NCBI GenBank assembly: GCA_965113315.1
Contig: OZ220367.1
Origin: Podarcis vaucheri
Taxonomy: Eukaryota
Strand: one strand, 5' to 3'
Length of the DNA stretch: 64,000 nucleotides
Part shown: positions 54,178 to 64,000 of the stretch, one piece after another
Layout of the letters: each line of letters starts with the position of its first letter
Numbering within the stretch: position 1 is the stretch's first letter
Notes under the pieces: model-generated
Database searches by the model: none
Seen by the model: the letters and a program-made list of their open reading frames with translations, nothing else
What the model was told of the DNA's origin: nothing
Position numbers and translations under genes: made by a program

Positions 54178-54487
54178 GTGGGACGCGGGTGGCGCTGTGG
54201 GTTAAAGCCTCAGCGCCTAGGGCTTGCCGATCGAAAGGTCGGCAGTTCGAATCCCCGTGGCGGGGTGCGCTCCCGTTGCTCGGTCCCAGCGCCTGCCAGC
54301 GGGAAGGTAAACGGCGTTCCGTGTGCTGCGCTGGCTCGCCAGATGCAGCTTTGTCACGCTGGCCACGTGACCCGGAAGTGTCTCCGGACAGCGCTGGCCC
54401 CCGGCCAATAGATGTGAGATGGGCGCACAAACCCCAGAGTCTGTCAAGACTGGCCCGTTCGGGCAGGGGTACCTTTACCTTTACCTT
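54178..54487 (+). mobile_element. Sauria SINE, divergent CpG-rich subfamily with internal deletion
   Basis: GGGACGCGGGTGGCGCTGTGG head, B box, (ACCTTT)n tail, and 14-bp TSD TATTTAGTATCAGA (54164-54177 / 54488-54501). Lacks the TATTTATCTACTTGCAC block. Confidence 0.92.
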
Positions 54488-55532
54488 TATTTAGTATCAG
54501 AAGCTTTGAACCCAATTCTATGGTATTAAGAAGGAAAATAACTTCACGTTTCTATTTCCGCCATTGCTTGTGTAAGCACAATACAGTCAGAACCCAGAAC
54601 TCATTTTTGTGTTCTGCATTTAAATGTTCATGGCATAAACCTCATGACAACATAGTGAGTTCACACGATCACTCTTTCGAAACGCTGACCTCTAAACAAG
54701 ATTTCCTGAAGTTGTAACTTACCCTTTTCTAACCACAATTCACTTATGAACTATTCCCCTTAAAAAAAGGACTTATGAATATGATCTTACTGTGAGTGGA
54801 ATAAGAAATGCTTTTGGCTGCTCCAAACACTAAAATAAAGTTAATCTGACCTTTTAAAAAGAGCCCTCTCCATTTTAACCAGCAGAATTGCTTTACATTT
54901 TGTCTTTACTGAAACAATCAGAGGAGAAATCTAATTTGAGTTTGAATAGATGAGCTGTCACACTCTAAATGTGCATACACAGTACCTTCACTGACATTAT
55001 GTCAATTGTATTTTTCTTCTTTTGAATACAAAAAAGGAGATAGCCCCAGTGCTTAAAATAACAAGTGAGAAACAAAGGCTCCTTTTCGTTAACCACCTAT
55101 AAGGACCTGAAAATACCTTGTTAGAAGGAACAAAGGCAACATTGCCTCTGTGTAGTAGCTAAAGCTCCAGCCCTTTCTGTCTGGCCAGGAATCAGGTATA
55201 AAGAGCCAGTTAAGAAACCCATGGGAAGTGTGAAAAAGGCAGAGCCAAAGTCTTCTTTCCTAGCTTCAAGCCATGTGAACTGTTCAGAATCAGAGCAATC
55301 TCAGCATGACTCCTGTCGCCACGCTATTGCATTGCTAGGAAATAATACAAGTGTGGTGCTTGGAGCTTTTGAAAGCCATCGGGATTGAGAAATCCTAGAA
55401 AGTTATTCTGTAAAAATATCACACACTGGGGATAAAGTAATATTCAAAATGTCTTTATGTATTTCTTTTTTAAAAACTATATGTGTCCTTTGATAATAAT
55501 ATCAGGGTGTGTTTTGAATAATTTTCTATATA

Positions 55533-55746
55533 GCGTGTTCTCATAAAAGAGAGAGCACGTGTTGCGGATGGGGCCGAACAAAACCCCCAGTTAGTGACCA
55601 GGCCATTGATGGCAATGGGCTGGAGTAGATTGGAAGAAGTTGTTACTGGGGCAAAATTGATGTTGCCAATTTAGGGGTGGGGTCAGACCCCTTATATAAG
55701 CAGGGTCCACAGCTTTCTCTTTCTCTTTCGCTGTGGACATCGGATC
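55533..55746 (+). repeat. Ngaro repeat A1 (214 bp)
   Basis: Identical by eye to 61936-62149. Confidence 0.95.
55629..55740 (+). promoter_or_regulatory. putative Pol II promoter in A1
   Basis: ATTGG at 55629, CCAAT at 55666, GGGGTGGGG at 55674 and TATATAAG at 55693-55700, in canonical spacing. Confidence 0.65.
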
Positions 55747-56440
55747 ACATGGAGCACTTGGACTGTCTGGAGGACAGTGATGCAAACTTCTCATTGGTTA
55801 CATTTCTTTATTTCCCCCTTCTTTTAATCCTCTTTAGTCCCTTAAATAATTTAATTCCCCCTTTTCCTGTTCAATTTCCCACCCCACCCCTTACCCTGCC
55901 CTGTGGGAAGATTCTCCCTGTATCTGTGGCTTGCCTTTCTTTCGCAAAAAGGTTTCCCCCATTTCTCCTGTTGTAAATTGTGGGGCTAGTCAGGGCTGTT
56001 CCCAGCTTAGCTGGAATCACTTTCGTTTATAGCACCCCGAAGGTTGGCTTTATTTGAGTGTGTGCAGCGCTGTTGGCCAAATTTTAATCTAGCCTTGGGC
56101 GGGAGCACTATTTTGAGTTCCTTTAATATTGCTATGAGACTAAGATTCTCAAGAGCAGAGGCATGGAGGCCTATTCGGCCTGCGCATAACTTCCGAGCCT
56201 AAGTATGCTACAGGTAGCAGTTAATTGTTAAGTCTCTGACCTCTCTATAAGAATGTACCTGCTTGCAGGCTCAGTTGCCGCTAATGTATATCTGAGGCAG
56301 ACAGAGGGCGGCAGAGGCTCTCTGTGCCTCCAATGACTATGAGCACTCCGTATATGCTCTTGAACTATGCTGTTTCTGAACAAGTTTATTTTCTTTAAGT
56401 TTGTTTTGCCCTGATAGTGGCGACTGCCATTTTAGAGGCG

Positions 56441-56515
56441 AGCCATTGTGGTTTAGTGGCTAAAGTGTAGGACTAGGACCTGGGAGACAGGGTTCATATC
56501 CCCCTCTTAGCCATT
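56441..56515 (+). mobile_element. old tRNA-type SINE head inside the Ngaro interior
   Basis: TGTGGTTTAGTGGCTAAAGTGTAGGACTAGGACCTGGGAGACAGGGTTCATATCCC shows degenerate A and B boxes. Confidence 0.55.
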
Positions 56516-57292
56516 GTTATAACAAAACAAAACAAACTGCTCCTTTTGGGCTATTCTGTTGCTGGGTAGTTCGGCCCATTTGTGATAAAAGAACTTTGGG
56601 TTTCTTGAAGGGGTGCTTCCCTCTAAAAGGGCAAGCAGGGGTGCCTGGACAAGCTGTGGGCTGCCTCAACTCTGCTATTTCACTGGAAACATTTATGCCT
56701 GGCCTAGCAGGTGATCCAAGGGCTTTGCCCTAGAATTCGATGGCCTGGAAGCATTTCCGGCCTGAATAGTGTCCCCATGTGGTCCACGAAGCATTGGTTT
56801 CACCAGTTCCTTACATTGTTTAGTTTTTGCGGACTATGACTGGGCTTTTGCAAATGCCTCAAGAGCTTGCCTCTCCTGCAGGGGATGACTTGTGGACGCC
56901 CCAGCTGTCTTCTTCCAGAAGGAAGCATCTTCGAAGGCTGCAATCCAGGAGGAGGGCAAAGAGGAGCAGGGATCATGATTCAGACATCACCTTGGACCTC
57001 TACAGGGGTCAGGGTGAGGCTGTCCTGGGTCTTTAGGGATCGTCCTGGATAGCTCAGCTGGTCAGCGCATAGTGCCGGTAATGCCTAGGTTGCAGGATTG
57101 GTCCCTATATGGGACAGCTGCATGCTCCCCCATTGCTCTACCTGGACACTTAGGTCCAGTCTCGAGGGCCTTTTGGTGGTTCCCTCACTGCGAGGGATGT
57201 AACAGGCGCCACGTTTGCAATATGCAAGCGGGAGAAAGCACCTTTGTGTGCCCGCACTGCAGTTTGCTCTGTGTGTTGCAGGGCTCAGCGCT

Positions 57293-57940
57293 GCACGGGC
57301 TGCATTTGCATTGCATTGCGTGAGAGATTTGCATTTGCATTGCACGGAGGTTGTGTGCATTGCACAGAGGGTGTGTGTGCATTGCACAGAGGGTGTGTGT
57401 GCATTGCACAGAATGTGTGTGTATTGCATAGAGTGTGTGTGCATTGCACGGAGGGTGTAGTGGCATTGCACAGAGTGTGTGTGTGTTTTTTGTGTTGTTG
57501 TTGTTTTTTGCATTGCACAGAGAGTGCATTGCACAGAGTGTGTAGTTGCATTGCATGGAGGGTAGTTGCATCGCACAGTGTGCGTTTTTGCATTGAACGG
57601 AGTGTGTAGTTGCATTGAACGGAGTGTGTAGTTGCATTGCATGAAGTGTGTAGTTGCATTGCACGGAGTGTGTAGTTGCATTGCATGAAGTGTGTAGTTG
57701 CATTGCATGGAGTGTGTAGTTGCATTGCACAGAGTGTGTAGTAGCATTGCATGGAGGGTAGTTGCATTGCATGGAGTTGCAATGCGTTTTTGCATTGCAC
57801 GAAGTGCGTTTTTGCATTGCACTGAGTGTGTAGTTGCATTGAACGGAGCGTGTAGCTGCATCGCACGGAGTATAGTTGCATTGCTTGGTTTGTGTGAGCA
57901 CTGCACGGAGTGTGTTTTTTGCATTGCACAGAGTGTGTGT
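57293..57940 (+). repeat. ~22-bp minisatellite (GCATTGCACRGAGTGTGTAGTT)n
   Basis: Roughly 30 degenerate tandem units anchored on TGCATTGCA. Confidence 0.93.
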
Positions 57941-57967
57941 CTGAAAAGGAAGCTGGCTCGGCAGCAG

Positions 57968-58060
57968 TTTTGTCGGGACTTTTTTAGCGGTTCTGGCCAG
58001 CGTCGGCCCTGTAAATTTACGTATTATGATGGCAGCACAAGATGCCCCCTGCCCAAGCGG
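57968..58060 (+). pseudogene. degenerate Ngaro gag C-terminal Cys/His finger
   Basis: FCRDFFSGSGQRRPCKFTY..., compare CWxFNxGxCxxxxCKFxH. Confidence 0.55.
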
Positions 58061-58099
58061 GGCTGGAAGCTGGCAAGCAATAGCTCAATACCTTTTGCC

Positions 58100-58935
58100 C
58101 ATATTCCATTTTATTTAGGGATCCAGTTGGATATCGTTGCTAAAACATACCACTTGCCTATGGAGAAGCTGTCTGCCTTGAAGGAAGTTATTTTGTAATA
58201 CTTCCTCTGTAGCAAGTGATGCTTCATCAGATCTGATCTTGCTGGGTCACTTAATTAATCTTGCATGCAGAGTGGTTGCCCCAGGCCGCCCCTTCCCTTC
58301 CCACTAGGCCAGGCTGCCTGGGGCCTGAGGTCCCCTTACCTTTCTCATGCAATGGTTGCAATTCCTAAATGTTGAGGTCCCCTTACCTCTCTCATGCAAT
58401 GGGATCTCATGCAATGGTTGCAATTCCTATATGTATGCAATAGTAGTTGGCCATGGCAGGATACTTGCACAGGGATTTTTCAGGTTCATGCTGATGCTGC
58501 TGGATCTTTGCCCTTTGGGTTTTTTTTTTTTATTTATTTATTTCAGGGGCTGCTGGTGTGCAAAGCTATGGCCTCAAGCCCGGTATGGTGAGGCAATCAT
58601 GTGACCTAACTTTTGAGTTTTCCCCATTGTAGTAGCAGTTCACATGTGGCCCGAGGAGTTCAGTGACCATCGGATCTGCTTTTGGTCTGATAACCAGGTA
58701 GTGGTGAGCGTCTTGGCTAAACAGTTCTCACGCTCCAGCAGAGTCTCCGCCCCTCCGCTCACGCTTTTGAGCTGCACCGCTTAAGGTTTAATATTGTGCT
58801 TTCTGCTCTCCTGATTACGGGATCCTCTAATGATGTCTCTGATACTCTATCCCATTTTCAGATTGAGCGCTTCAGATCCTGGGCTCCAGACACTCAGCTA
58901 TTGCCAGACTTTTCCAGACCACCTGTGGCATTTTG
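58100..58935 (+). pseudogene. RT C-terminus + RNase H (frameshifted; RT catalytic core missing)
   Basis: YLGIQLD..YHLPMEKL, LGHL..ACRVVAPGRPF, WLQFL, VHADAAGS, EFFPIVVAVHMW, FWSDNQVVV, NDVSDTLSHFQ..FR. Many stops and frameshifts. Confidence 0.88.
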
Positions 58936-58959
58936 ACAACAATTAGTAATTACAGAGAG

Positions 58960-59820
58960 CAGCAGCTTCCATTTCCCCTTCTGCTTTTAGCTCTTATGGG
59001 AAGGCCTGGATGGATTTCTTAGCCTTAAGCTGGCAGTCCTCGGCCATTCAGATGAACTGGCCCCCATCCTCTGAGCAGATCCTGCAGTATTTGGTCCACC
59101 TGCCGCAGATTGGGCGGGCTGTTATAACTATAAGAATTCAGTCCGCTGCAATGTCTGTTATACTGAAGATTTATTTTTCAGAGACCCTTGCATAAAGTTT
59201 GTAATGCGCAGGGCCTTGGAAGGTTGGAATAGGCTCCAACCTCATAGGACAGTGGGCAGGAAGTCGGTCAATTTTATCTATGCAGGATCTGCAACAAGTT
59301 AAAACTTGTCTGCTGGTAAAAGATCAAGGCGAGACTCCTTTCAGTATTCCATTGCATTTTGGGCACTGAGGGTTGGGGAAATGGTTGTTGGAGCCAGCAC
59401 AGGGCTGAGAGTCTGGAGGCTTATTGCTTCAGGACTTTTCCTTATTTGCTTTGGAGCTTGTCATTAGAGTTGGGAACTCTAAAACAGACTTAGTGGGCAG
59501 GAGTGCCACAATCAGGCTTCCCATTACAGATGAGGAGGGCCCTTGCACGGTTATGGATACCAGAAAAATTTGGCTTTTCATTCCCCTGGGGGCTGGCCCA
59601 CTCCTAGTGCATGAAAATGGGTTCCCATTAGCCAGGCATTAATGTGCTTACATCGTGCACCAGTTATCACGGCCTGCGGCTTGCCTACCGCTGAACACTC
59701 CTCATTCCTTACGATTAGGTGCTGCTGCAAAGGCTGCACACTGGGGGCCTGTCAGTAGACAGGATTTTGAATACGGGTCATTGGAAGTCTGACGCTGACG
59801 AGGGTTATATCAGGAAGTGT
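58960..59820 (+). pseudogene. tyrosine recombinase (frameshifted)
   Basis: SYGKAWMDF, WPPS, ALEGW, LRVGE (59366), SKTD (59478), PLLVHENG.PL, HSLRLGAA (59703) and GHWKSDA..GYIR (Tyr at 59806) give the R-HxxR-Y signature. Confidence 0.9.
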
Positions 59821-59869
59821 CACAATGATGTCTGTGCTGATGCTTGTCTGTTATTTCCTTTTCTCATAG

Positions 59870-60180
59870 GAGCAGCTGTGCACATTTGGGCCACAGCATT
59901 GTAGACTGGGCTGGCAAGCGCGCTGACAAGTCTGGACTGGGGCGCCATCTCAGTCTTCCTGCCCATGTGAACATATGCTGGATGTCCAGATGGGGAATGC
60001 TTTGGGAGGAGGTCCTTCCTTTGGTGCGGTCGAGTGTGACCTGTGCAGGTCCTCCCGCAGTGCTGGTGGTACAGCTAGGCGGGAATGATTTGCCGTCTTC
60101 CTCCAGCATAAGTTTGCATTCCTGCATGCAAGAGGGCTTGGATTGAGTTGATGGCAGCTCTCCCTGGACTCAAAATAATT
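59870..60180 (+). pseudogene. degenerate, 3'-truncated SGNH hydrolase (copy 1)
   Basis: VHIW/GHSIVDWA..W..RWGMLW..PPAVLVVQLGGND. It is frameshifted, has a stop, and lacks the DxxH block. Confidence 0.85.
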
Positions 60181-60359
60181 TAAGGCATTTGGTTCAAGGT
60201 GGTCTGGAGGGGGGTTGGAGCACCTGTCCCCTCCAATGCGCAAAGATATTCCATTAAAGGAAACCAAGGATTTGCCATGCTTTGTCAACCCCCTTTCGAG
60301 GGGTAGGGCCACGCAAGAGTCCCTGGGAGCATTTGGGGTGAGCTTGAGTCTGATCCTGG

Positions 60360-60900
60360 TTCATTGCTCCCCCACGCTGTTTACTTGTTCTGACGATATG
60401 GTGGGGCCCAGTCGTCAGTGCTGCTCTGCTGAGGTCAGATGCAGCTAGTCGGGAACCAATGCCTAGACAAACTACCACCGAGCAGGCCAGAAAGCATGTT
60501 AATATGGCGGTGGAAAATAAAATAAAATAAATAAAGTAAATAAAATAAAATAAAATAACATATAAAATAAAATAGGTCCTTGCTTTAGGTGGTTCTGTGA
60601 TATTGCACCCTGCTATTTTCTTCAAGACTGTTCCCCTCTTTGGGGCAGATGGGGGGTGCATCTTTCCCCTATGGGGAACGACACCTGGCGGGATGCGATT
60701 GCCTTGGGATTCATTGCTCCCCCACAATGTTGCTGGTACTGACAATATGGTGGGGCCCAGTCGTCAGTGCTGCCCTGCTGAGGTCAGGTGCAGCTAGTCA
60801 GGAACCAGTGCCTAGACAAACTACCACCAAAGAGGCCGGTAAGCATGTTAATAAGGAAGTGTAAAATAATAAAATAAAATAAAATAAAGAATAATAAAAT
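60360..60900 (+). repeat. diverged direct repeat pair (60360-~60560 and 60710-60900), remnant B-type ends of the older element
   Basis: Both copies read TTCATTGCTCCCCCAC...ATATGGTGGGGCCCAGTCGTCAGTGCTGC...GCCTAGACAAACTACCACC...(AAAAT)n, with multiple substitutions. Confidence 0.85.
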
Positions 60901-60907
60901 TCTTCAG

Positions 60908-61482
60908 GTCGGGCCGCTATCCGTATCTGGATAGTAGGGCACAGTATTGTGCATTGGGCTGCGGACAGAGCTCGTCAGTCTGGACTGGGCGATGGCCTGG
61001 GCTTTCCGCAGCACGTACAGTTGTCCTGGATCTCCAGAAGGGGGATGCTGTGGAGGGAATTCTTACCTCTCATGCAACGGCGTGTCCTACGGTTTGGCCC
61101 TCCTTCGGCGATCATGGTGCAGCTCGGGGAGAACGATATGGTTTCCTCTTCCTGCTATGGGCTGCGTGCTGCCATATTACAGGACCTTGGAGAGCTGGCG
61201 GCACTGGTGCCGTCAACTAAGCTAATTTGGTCACAGCTATTGCAACGCCACATTTGGCGAGGTAGTCCTTGCCCAGCCGCCACCGAACGTGTAAGGAAGC
61301 GGATTAATTCTGCGGCAAGCAAGCTGGTGGTGAATCTGGGCGGGTCTGTGATCCCTCACCCTCTGATTTCATTCAAGGCGATTGAATTTTATAGGGATGA
61401 CGGGGTTCATCTCTCGCCAGTTGGGAATGATGTGTGGTTGGATGCTATGGTGTCCAGGCTGAGGGTGTGGCTTAATTTGTGA
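60908..61482 (+). CDS. intact SGNH/GDSL-family hydrolase of the Ngaro element (probably a spliced exon)
   Basis: Open frame 60898-61482. Block I IWIVGHS, block II G (RRGM), block III QLGEND and block V DGVH are all present. There is no ATG before the catalytic Ser, and the frame is preceded by TTCTTCAG. Confidence 0.85.
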
Positions 61483-61511
61483 GTGGTTGGCGGCGAGCGT
61501 AAGGGCTCGAA

Positions 61512-61932
61512 TGGCGGTTAGGCATTGGTTAAAATTGGTTGGTGGAGGGGTATGGATTGGCTGTGCCTGCCCCTCCAATGCTGCTGCAGACGGGTATTCC
61601 GTTAAAGGAATTCTGAAGCTTACCATCCCCCTCGTCCAAACCCTGACGGCAGGGTGCGGGCCGTGTAAGCTTCAAGGAACATGCGCGGAGCAGTGAGAGT
61701 CTGTGACGCAGCTCCATCTGACTCTGACCATGTTTCCTCCGGGACTGGCTACGGAGTCAGTGCTGTCCCCCCAAGGCGGGGGGGGACAGGTAGTCATAAC
61801 CAATGCCTAAGCAACCACTCTCAATTTGTATAAAAATAAAGTTGTGGCCAAAATTATGCCAAAAACCTTAAACAAAAATTACGTGTGATGTCTGAGTTAT
61901 TGGGGTAGGGGTTTTGGGGGACCTCAGCACGC
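61512..61932 (+). repeat. Ngaro repeat B1 (421 bp)
   Basis: Identical by eye to 62318-62738 (offset 806). Contains AATAAA at ~61835. Confidence 0.95.
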
Positions 61933-61935
61933 AAA

Positions 61936-62149
61936 GCGTGTTCTCATAAAAGAGAGAGCACGTGTTGCGGATGGGGCCGAACAAAACCCCCAGTTAGTGA
62001 CCAGGCCATTGATGGCAATGGGCTGGAGTAGATTGGAAGAAGTTGTTACTGGGGCAAAATTGATGTTGCCAATTTAGGGGTGGGGTCAGACCCCTTATAT
62101 AAGCAGGGTCCACAGCTTTCTCTTTCTCTTTCGCTGTGGACATCGGATC
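61936..62149 (+). repeat. Ngaro repeat A2
   Basis: Identical by eye to A1, including the CCAAT, GC-box and TATA motifs. Confidence 0.95.
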
Positions 62150-62317
62150 TCCCGCCCGCCCTCCCTTGATTTGGGCTTGCGCTTTGACCTTGCTCTGCCT
62201 GTCATGGGGTCGTTCGCCTTGGTGCGGGGGCCCAGTAGGAATTTGTCCAATTGGCTGATTAGTGCGTGCCTTTTGGGTTTTGCCTACTGCTTAGCAAATC
62301 GTCACAACTTGTAAGGT

Positions 62318-62738
62318 TGGCGGTTAGGCATTGGTTAAAATTGGTTGGTGGAGGGGTATGGATTGGCTGTGCCTGCCCCTCCAATGCTGCTGCAGACGGG
62401 TATTCCGTTAAAGGAATTCTGAAGCTTACCATCCCCCTCGTCCAAACCCTGACGGCAGGGTGCGGGCCGTGTAAGCTTCAAGGAACATGCGCGGAGCAGT
62501 GAGAGTCTGTGACGCAGCTCCATCTGACTCTGACCATGTTTCCTCCGGGACTGGCTACGGAGTCAGTGCTGTCCCCCCAAGGCGGGGGGGGACAGGTAGT
62601 CATAACCAATGCCTAAGCAACCACTCTCAATTTGTATAAAAATAAAGTTGTGGCCAAAATTATGCCAAAAACCTTAAACAAAAATTACGTGTGATGTCTG
62701 AGTTATTGGGGTAGGGGTTTTGGGGGACCTCAGCACGC
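62318..62738 (+). repeat. Ngaro repeat B2
   Basis: Identical by eye to B1. AATAAA at 62641 followed by a GT-rich tract suggests a poly(A) site. Confidence 0.95.
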
Positions 62739-64000
62739 AAATAGCAGACAGATGAAGAATCAGAAGTTCTTTCTTTTTATTTTTTCTTCCTTTCTCTCTT
62801 CTCTCGTTTTTTCTCCCTTTTGGTTTCTGTTTTTATTTAGTTTTATTATTTTTGATAAAAAGATATTGGACATTAACCTTATTACATTTTCTTTCAAACT
62901 TTAATAATAGTAGATGTGCATGAGACAAAAGGATGTCTGGAATTTGATTGGCAGAGTTGTTGCTATTTGCAGTAAGCAGCCCTTCCAGGGGGCAAATAAT
63001 AGCTGTGGGGAGGACCAGGAGTGCTTCTCTGATCCAGACTGAAGCACATTCCAGTTGGAAGGTCCATACAGCTTCTTTTCCTTCAAAACAAAAGCAGCCA
63101 GCTTTGACAAAGCTTCTAAAATAAGTGTGACTAACGTAACACTTTGTTTGGATCTAATCAATCCCAATTCTGTGTTCTAAATGTGATTGTGATGTTTTGC
63201 TAGGGAGTCAAGACGAAACCAGAACTGATGTGTATTCACCGATGTTGTTAATGTGTTATGCTTGACAAAATTTTCATAAGGAGTTGGGTTTCTGAGCATA
63301 TTTTTGCCCTTGCTGGTTTATATTTCTTCCAATGGCCAAAAATAAATCTGTACTGTTTCATCCTTTACAAAAATGTGACATGCACGTTAAAAAGTGCTAA
63401 GTAAAACTGACGAATCTTGCATCTTCTTTTCTAGGTTAAGCTAGATAATTTTGCAAAGCCAGATTTTATGCTCTTTGAACATTGAGTCCATTGAGTAACT
63501 CAGCTTCATGTCTCAATTATTTAATTCCAAGTCCACGGAGAGATTCTTAAAATAACGGCTTCAGAGGCCCAATGCCAAGAATTGGGATGGTAGCAGAGCA
63601 CATTATGGACTGCGCGAAAAGCAAATGTTGACAGTTAAAAGCGCGTCAACTTCTATGCTTTTAAAGCTGTGTGAAGTGGAGAGAAGCAGAATCTTCTGCA
63701 GACAGTAGATTCTACTTTCCCCAACACACTGAAAATAATACTCGCTGGCCAATTAAATGCTGGAAAAGTGAGGCTAAAAGAGATGAGGCTAGATTTGACC
63801 TAGTTAGTTTCATTTAAGTTCTCAGAGCGATAAAAGGAGCAGGAAAGGAAGGAAATCAGCAAAGCACACCAGATAGTTTCCTAAATTACGAGAGGCAAAA
63901 CACTCCTGAGGAATACTCAAGAACATAAAAATGATTATCTCTTTTCTTAACTCTCTGTGAAATCAACGACTCCACATCTGTTTGCTATAATATTTAATGA

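Follow-up and report, generated by a model that had tools for sequence, protein, structure and literature searches.

Layout of the locus

We examined a window of 64,000 nucleotides from Podarcis vaucheri (contig OZ220367.1), within which an earlier note had reported a compact multi-hairpin structure at 61481..61820. Judged by its sequence, this stretch belongs to an Ngaro tyrosine-recombinase retrotransposon, where it represents the B1 repeat of an element with the order A1-ORFs-hydrolase-B1-A2-spacer-B2 (Table 1). The element is 7.2 kb long, with the folded stretch at its 3' end, and displays two hallmarks of Ngaro, the split direct repeats A1-B1-A2-B2 and an SGNH hydrolase ORF that comes after the tyrosine recombinase (YR); the accessible text of PMC9210276 describes the Ngaro layout as A1-ORFs-B1-A2-B2 with RT, YR and hydrolase ORFs. 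The hairpin Ph sits just outside the B boundary and is found at B1 only.

RT and tyrosine recombinase persist only as decayed remnants without an open frame, and the family of the window element is non-autonomous. It is also young, with all 40 scored copies (of 2,332 candidates) being 96-100% identical over B. Relatives in the same genome are intact for ORF1, RT (YLDD), tyrosine recombinase (HSFRIG) and hydrolase, and in two of them (L192 and L194) we find RVT_1 at E-values of 5e-13 and 3e-12 and Phage_integrase at 1e-5 and 3e-4, the latter under the curated cut-off. The hydrolase ORFs match GDSL families at E-values of 1e-4 to 4e-3, likewise under the curated cut-off, the nearest named homologs of the window hydrolase are from lacertid lizards, and no methyltransferase family was detected among the eight ORFs scanned.

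The window hydrolase is intact although the RT and YR of its family are dead, and in comparison with four relatives it shows 34/19, 28/18, 30/25 and 49/39 synonymous/non-synonymous codon changes (191 codons). The intact frame and the synonymous excess suggest either a recent capture of the 3' module or ongoing selection. We also observe an array of 20-22-bp tandem repeats (TGCATTGCA core) at window positions 57287-57943, within the non-autonomous element and also present in its sister copy L195, and a SINE-like insert at 54180-54490, which appears to resemble the Sauria SINE.

Table 1. Features of the Ngaro element and of its 3' module, in window coordinates
Feature	Position	Strand	Remarks
A1 repeat	55532..55746	+	same sequence as A2; TATA-like TATATAAG at 55693
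RT/RNase H and tyrosine-recombinase remnants, decayed	58073..59814	+	34-39% identity to intact relative (main matches); no open frame
Older decayed B core	60181..60475	+	displaced into dead hydrolase: N-part before, C-part after
3' half of B, second copy	about 60710-60835	+	downstream of older B core
SGNH/GDSL hydrolase ORF, intact	60898..61482	+	194 aa; stop overlaps P0 5' strand
B1-specific leader	61481..61511	+	P0 5' strand, first TGGCGG (61488), hairpin Ph (61495-61508)
B1 repeat	61512..61935	+	begins at TGGCGG; same sequence as B2
Folded core	61518..61810	+	P1 61518-31/61797-810
P3	61543-77	+	folded core of B1
P4	61597-610	+	loop GTTAAA; C-C/NUAAA/G-G hairpin
P5	61615-73	+	long arm
P6	about 61674-740	+	folded core of B1
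P7	61745-60	+	folded core of B1
P8	61764-88	+	folded core of B1
AATAAA, then invariant GTTGTGGC	61835..61848	+	B1 copy
A2 repeat	61935..62149	+	TATA-like box at 62096; B/A junction CACGCAA|AGC at 5' edge
Unique spacer, A2 to B2	62150..62317	+	about 170 nt
ENE-like hairpin	62234..62288	+	U-rich internal loop between covarying outer stem and inner stem
Spacer 10-mer GTCACAACTT	62301..62310	+	complementary to AAGTTGTGGC at 62645-54 and 61839-48; predicted stem Pa
B2 repeat	62318..62741	+	B1-type fold, own spacer-derived P0' strand; AATAAA at 62641

Fold of the B1 repeat

The comparison with shuffled controls that the earlier note had proposed came out in favour of the fold, with B1 reaching -163.3 kcal/mol against -129.3 +/- 5.5 for its shuffles (z -6.2; 0 of 100 shuffles as low). 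The strings named in that note all lie where it had placed them, and most of its stems are predicted with high pair probability. The closing stem P1 is a perfect 14 bp (0.98), the outer pairing P0 between 61481-89 and 61812-20 spans 9 bp (0.95), and of the inner stems P3 reaches 0.97 and CCCTG/CAGGG 0.99. For P8 the strings are there but the predicted pair probability is just 0.32, and the proposed stem between CTGACTC (61718-24) and GAGTCAG had to be abandoned (0.0), because GAGTCAG pairs locally with CTGGCT at 61745-50 (0.98), in a register also found in other families. Missing from the note were P4, better conserved than any other hairpin, and the outer stem of P5; P5 is predicted in B1 at a pair probability of at least 0.95. 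A four-way junction closed by GGGW/WCCC, proposed by eye, was unsupported in the seven folds computed.

Across ten families, the core has z-scores of -3.4 to -7.6, versus +0.8 to -3.3 for the hydrolase coding sequence and -0.6 to -4.7 for the A repeat, so that a low z is not unique to B, given the value of -4.7 that the A repeat reached in one family. In the same ten families the minus-strand z-scores are as low as those of the plus strand.

Covariation across families

From the same genome we took 100 loci downstream of hydrolases 41-91% identical to that of the window, 98 of which carry the poly(A) motif. Together with the window they yielded 46 representatives (<95% identity), or 45 after one with an internal duplication was dropped, and further clades with other P1 sequences were added by pattern and protein searches; clade numbers and helix names are labels of this analysis. 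The clades are 57-68% identical in B, and all share a common order, which runs P0 strand, TTGGCGG, hairpin, TGGCGG, P1, P3, GGG-P4 (NUAAA-type loop), P5, P6, optional P7/P8, P1', P0' and AATAAAGTTGTGGCC. Since P7 and P8, the last two hairpins of the earlier description, are absent in part of clade II, we regard them as peripheral.

For the main covariation null, columns were simulated independently on the tree and the structure was predicted from the window alone, with the P4 and 'Pq' rows excluded from this window-fold test. Double-change pair types numbered 31 versus 15.8 under the null in the 23 clade-I representatives (p=0.002) and 65 versus 36.6 in the 45 representatives of three clades (p=0.002). 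Helix by helix, for 23 and 45 representatives respectively, P5 (p=0.002 and 0.005) and P6 (p=0.035 and 0.002) stand out; the share of changed cells that are still paired was not significant (p=0.052 for 23, 0.165 for 45). Among 47 spacer+B2 units from further clades (29 from paired elements and 18 chosen among 44 solos), double-change cells exceeded the null in P1 (27 vs 7.5; p=0.002) and P4 (18 vs 2.1; p=0.004), with P3 (p=0.06) and P0' (p=0.14) not significant. An independent count over six helices gave 58 both-side cells versus 20.9 shuffled (0 of 500), above all slid controls, in a shuffle that ignores relatedness, and a blind all-pairs G-test of low power (23 and 22 sequences) returned no canonical pair at E<=1. 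We conclude that P1, P4 and P5 keep pairing through double changes beyond the tree-aware null across families whose hydrolases are 37-90% identical. Moreover, B1 and B2 supply different upstream strands for one common 3' strand, and each changes with that strand.

The inverted repeats might instead act in single-stranded cDNA, as a circularisation panhandle or a recombinase substrate, and not in RNA. P1 is Watson-Crick and able to form on either strand, the minus-strand z-scores match the plus strand in lowness, and DIRS cDNA is single-stranded according to the accessible part of PMC7192593. The wobble pairs speak against this, as 27 young families contain 78 G-U versus 2 A-C cells, which points to the + strand as the folded one (the types are 24 vs 24 once decayed solos are included), and the U-rich loop of the spacer and the poly(A) signal are meaningful on + RNA only. 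We consider action in cDNA quite improbable. Overall, a real, selected cis-acting RNA structure in B is supported by the compensatory changes across families, in agreement with the functional cis-acting element that had been proposed, whose alternative forms, RNA or ssDNA, are narrowed by the G-U excess to + RNA over ssDNA of the other strand.

Some bases of P1 and P4 are invariant across families, and invariant bases occur in the short NUAAA loop and at junctions. Such positions, and a repeated unit of about 800 nt that is tandem in some loci, could also be expected if the core were a new self-cleaving ribozyme, one that generates the primer end or frees A2-spacer-B2. We find this very improbable, since Rfam scans of the window (55000-63000) and five loci gave only sub-threshold matches, none near the gathering score, and among the 47 units a hammerhead core with GAAA occurs in none and a hairpin-ribozyme motif in one (+ strand). 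A pistol-type motif was likewise found in 0 of 47 units and a loose HDV-loop motif in 10 (+) and 6 (-). By Rfam scans and core motifs, the structure matches none of the known self-cleaving ribozymes (hammerhead, HDV-like, twister, pistol, hairpin), and the self-cleavage that the note had put up for testing thus finds no support.

The older homolog upstream, which had been cited as the source of covariation, shares 169 of 293 aligned columns with B1 and folds with a z of -2.6 only. It does keep P3, P4 and a bulged P1 that shows the GGTTC/GAACC change, but it is weak evidence by itself, and the covariation is confirmed by the other families of the genome and not by this homolog alone. It is a displaced, decaying B copy that stems from another family, and no working B. 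The surrounding region (window 59886-60835) is a scrambled dead module consisting of the hydrolase N-part, the full P1-bounded B core, the hydrolase C-part, interrupted by an (AAAAT)n run, and the 3' half of B. The older core starts exactly at the P1 5' strand, and an insertion starting there would fit a stray template jump at the B edge.

Nearly all of this evidence comes from one genome. The large core was not seen in the distant loci examined (hydrolase 31-38% aa) and the Xenopus B is just 152 bp according to the accessible text of PMC9210276, so the core may be lineage-specific. A literature search, beyond whose reach the founding Ngaro papers lay, returned no account of RNA structure in the Ngaro B or spacer, and the accessible part of PMC4157794 adds no information on mechanism. 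The B structure is real and appears to be undescribed, an RNA structure with a putative function in a known element class.

The A2-B2 spacer and its U-rich loop

The spacer between A2 and B2 measures 165-180 nt across families, and 33% of its columns are at least 90% conserved, versus 12% in the B core. An exact search for its motif finds 4,924 copies in the genome, versus 2 for a reversed control, and 0 in viral contigs. Upon folding single sequences, we find an internal loop rich in U that has a stem on either side, with G-C pairs next to it, as is typical of ENEs. The outer stem of this loop is 99% paired in the 47 spacer+B2 units, with 25 double-change cells versus 4.1 (p=0.002), and reads GGTAGG/CCTACC, GGCAGG/CCTGCC or GGAAGG/CCTTCC depending on the clade. 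The 10-mer GTCACAACTT ends the spacer, and the stem Pa that it would form is nested directly outside P0' and P1. Both Pa strands are nearly invariant (97% paired, 0 double changes in 47 units); of 14 units, 8 give Pa a probability of P>=0.57 and the other 6 one of <=0.11, and forcing it in the window costs 1.4 kcal/mol. The A2-B2 spacer is part of the same module as the B fold, which is new here.

A U-rich loop of this kind would be compatible with a spacer+B module for RNA stability or export without a direct role in priming, in which the loop holds the poly(A) tail and the B core recruits host factors. Retroviral CTE and RRE elements recruit host factors for export or stability. The Evade retrotransposon is both stabilised and mobilised by ENEs, as the accessible text of PMC12501189 reports, the internal loop here has a G-C-rich covarying outer stem, and a multi-arm fold of 300 nt with a long closing stem follows directly after the last stop codon. 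We nevertheless think this explanation unlikely, though it deserves serious attention, because the U-tracts, which are 5/5-6 U in clades II-III, are broken up or no longer than 3-4 U in the window as well as in some members of clades I, IV and V (3 nt at the shortest), the spacer folded by itself shows no unusual stability (z +0.4 to -2.3; 10 families), and the fixed TGGCGG edge and hairpin Ph are left unexplained.

The nearly invariant Pa strands bear on another explanation, the choice between the B1 and B2 poly(A) sites, which the earlier note had listed and which is possible; the sequence able to hide the signal, however, lies in the spacer, outside the stretch then described. The spacer 10-mer would pair over the end of AATAAA and the next bases at B1 or B2, so that the element would yield either a short mRNA that ends at B1 or a full-length RNA that ends at B2. 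Pa does cover the final two A of AATAAA, AATAAAGTTGTGGC is conserved in all columns, and five units with P(Pa) of about 1 have these positions paired in B2 but largely unpaired in B1. Such a switch does not require the conserved inner core (P3-P6), however, occlusion at B2 is the opposite of what the full-length RNA needs, and a search for polyadenylated retrocopies gave one match, an A-run within an intact B. Poly(A)-site choice as the role of the structure is in our judgement improbable.

Repeat edge, solo units and other arrangements

In 64 B1/B2 pairs we count 80 differences over 25,889 aligned bases, and 38 of the 64 pairs are identical throughout. (T)TGGCGG opens the shared sequence in 58 of 65 pairs, many of which are copies from few families, and in 6 of 7 more. 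Since B1 equals B2 up to the TGGCGG edge while the clades differ as widely as given above, we infer that both are re-copied from one template to a fixed point. Directly before the B1 edge lies a hairpin with a copy of the direct repeat TGGCGG on each side; a hairpin and then TGGCGG also follow the hydrolase in the distant loci L196, L197 and L199 (31-38% aa) and were not seen in L198.

Solo A-spacer-B units make up 44 of the 59 classifiable older-clade loci (3 of 62 were unplaceable). These units (L204-L264) thus dominate the older clades, keep promoter-like and poly(A) signals, and could supply structured non-coding RNA in large amounts. A TATA-like box is found near the end of A in clades I and III, from which A2 could drive a short transcript.

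We further observe several other arrangements. At the B/A junction (61928-61975), the 3' end of B folds with the 5' end of A into a nested hairpin that shows clade-specific paired changes by eye, a possible folded recombinase substrate. L099, L125 and L190 have tandem B-A-spacer-B-A-spacer-B ends. Many copies stop after B1 and lack A2-spacer-B2 (L092, L096, L103, L116, L119, L129 and others), a form that is most readily attributed to B1/B2 recombination or to integration of a single-unit circle. In L249, the B of one clade directly precedes the 3' part of the B of another clade, which suggests insertion into a related element.

A possible role in reverse transcription

We tentatively favour the reading that the B2 fold and the A2-B2 spacer form a 3'-terminal signal for RT/Gag binding and are the probable start of minus-strand cDNA. 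Of the functions listed in the earlier note, which had chosen none, RT priming or strand transfer and packaging would fit best. In the proposed mechanism, P1, P0' and Pa would close B2 into a loop and lay the RNA 3' end on the spacer, the B core would dock RT or Gag, and the U-rich loop would take up the poly(A) tail, stabilising RNAs that end at B2. Synthesis would then start at or just 5' of the TGGCGG edge of B2, most simply from the RNA's own 3' end, with the B2 body serving as a handle and not as the first template. B1 would serve as the template from which B2 DNA is restored, the final template jump falling at TGGCGG and hairpin Ph marking the stop, and such rebuilding would explain why B1 and B2 never diverge while families do. 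Against this stands that self-priming through Pa requires a 3' end 8 nt past AATAAA, whereas a conserved CA about 20 nt downstream resembles an ordinary cleavage site. In four full-length copies, no conserved duplex was found that would make the sequence after A1 a primer-binding site complementary to B or the spacer. According to the accessible text of PMC7192593, no primer was determined for DIRS-1, a 3' hairpin being named there as one that might serve.

A bolder version, which we hold to be possible though rather doubtful, would make A2-spacer-B2 a self-contained, ENE-protected RNA domain of about 540 nt, to which the Ngaro RT binds and whose own 3' end acts as the primer. Such an RNA might in addition be transcribed separately, by the A2 promoter as well as from solo units in their thousands. 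If true, this would give tyrosine-recombinase retrotransposons their first defined primer mechanism, and it would establish a new RNA family.

The start of reverse transcription in DIRS-order retrotransposons is presented as an open question in the accessible part of PMC7192593. The module described here offers defined parts for it, namely a covarying core, a few invariant bases, the complementarity between spacer and 3' end, an ENE-like loop and a fixed repeat edge, in a vertebrate Ngaro group that is very active. It is an RNA family absent from Rfam, with its spacer motif at thousands of exact copies in the genome. If confirmed, the ENE-like loop would extend ENE-type elements to a YR retroelement of a land vertebrate.

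Comparison with known systems

RNAs that bind RT or prime reverse transcription include hepadnaviral epsilon, the DGR cis-priming RNA, retron msr-msd and Tf1 self-priming. As in these, we find a folded RNA in or near a terminal redundancy, a closing stem that joins distant ends and no tRNA primer site. Unlike these RNAs, to which it shows no sequence or Rfam likeness (no match to the epsilon, DGR and retron family models of Rfam in the window and five loci), the structure here has a larger multi-arm core and exists in two copies with different upstream partners. The comparison therefore concerns the way of working only.

With the ENE and double-ENE elements of KSHV PAN, Evade and plant and fungal TEs, the spacer hairpin shares a U-rich internal loop beside G-C pairs, and ENEs in retroelements also lie upstream of the poly(A) site, according to the accessible texts of PMC7583470 and PMC12501189. 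ENE-type elements are reported from plants, fungi, slime mould and stickleback retroviruses in the former. The loop described here differs in that it is predicted within the spacer of a YR element, with about 400 nt between it and the tail, near which it would be brought by the B closing stems, and in its U-tracts of 3-6 nt, where an ENE calls for consecutive U on both sides sufficient for about five U-A-U triples.

With Ngaro-like elements that carry an SGNH hydrolase (order DIRS), the element shares the repeat layout and the RT, YR and hydrolase ORFs. For those elements the accessible literature describes no conserved RNA structure in B or the A2-B2 spacer, whereas we find one in lizard-type families. 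Finally, the SIRE of Trypanosoma cruzi VIPER and the isolated AB repeats of Cafeteria Ngaros are likewise solo A-spacer-B units, as described in the accessible parts of PMC6681497 and PMC8547959; in contrast to these, the unit found here holds a conserved folded RNA together with its own promoter-like and poly(A) signals.
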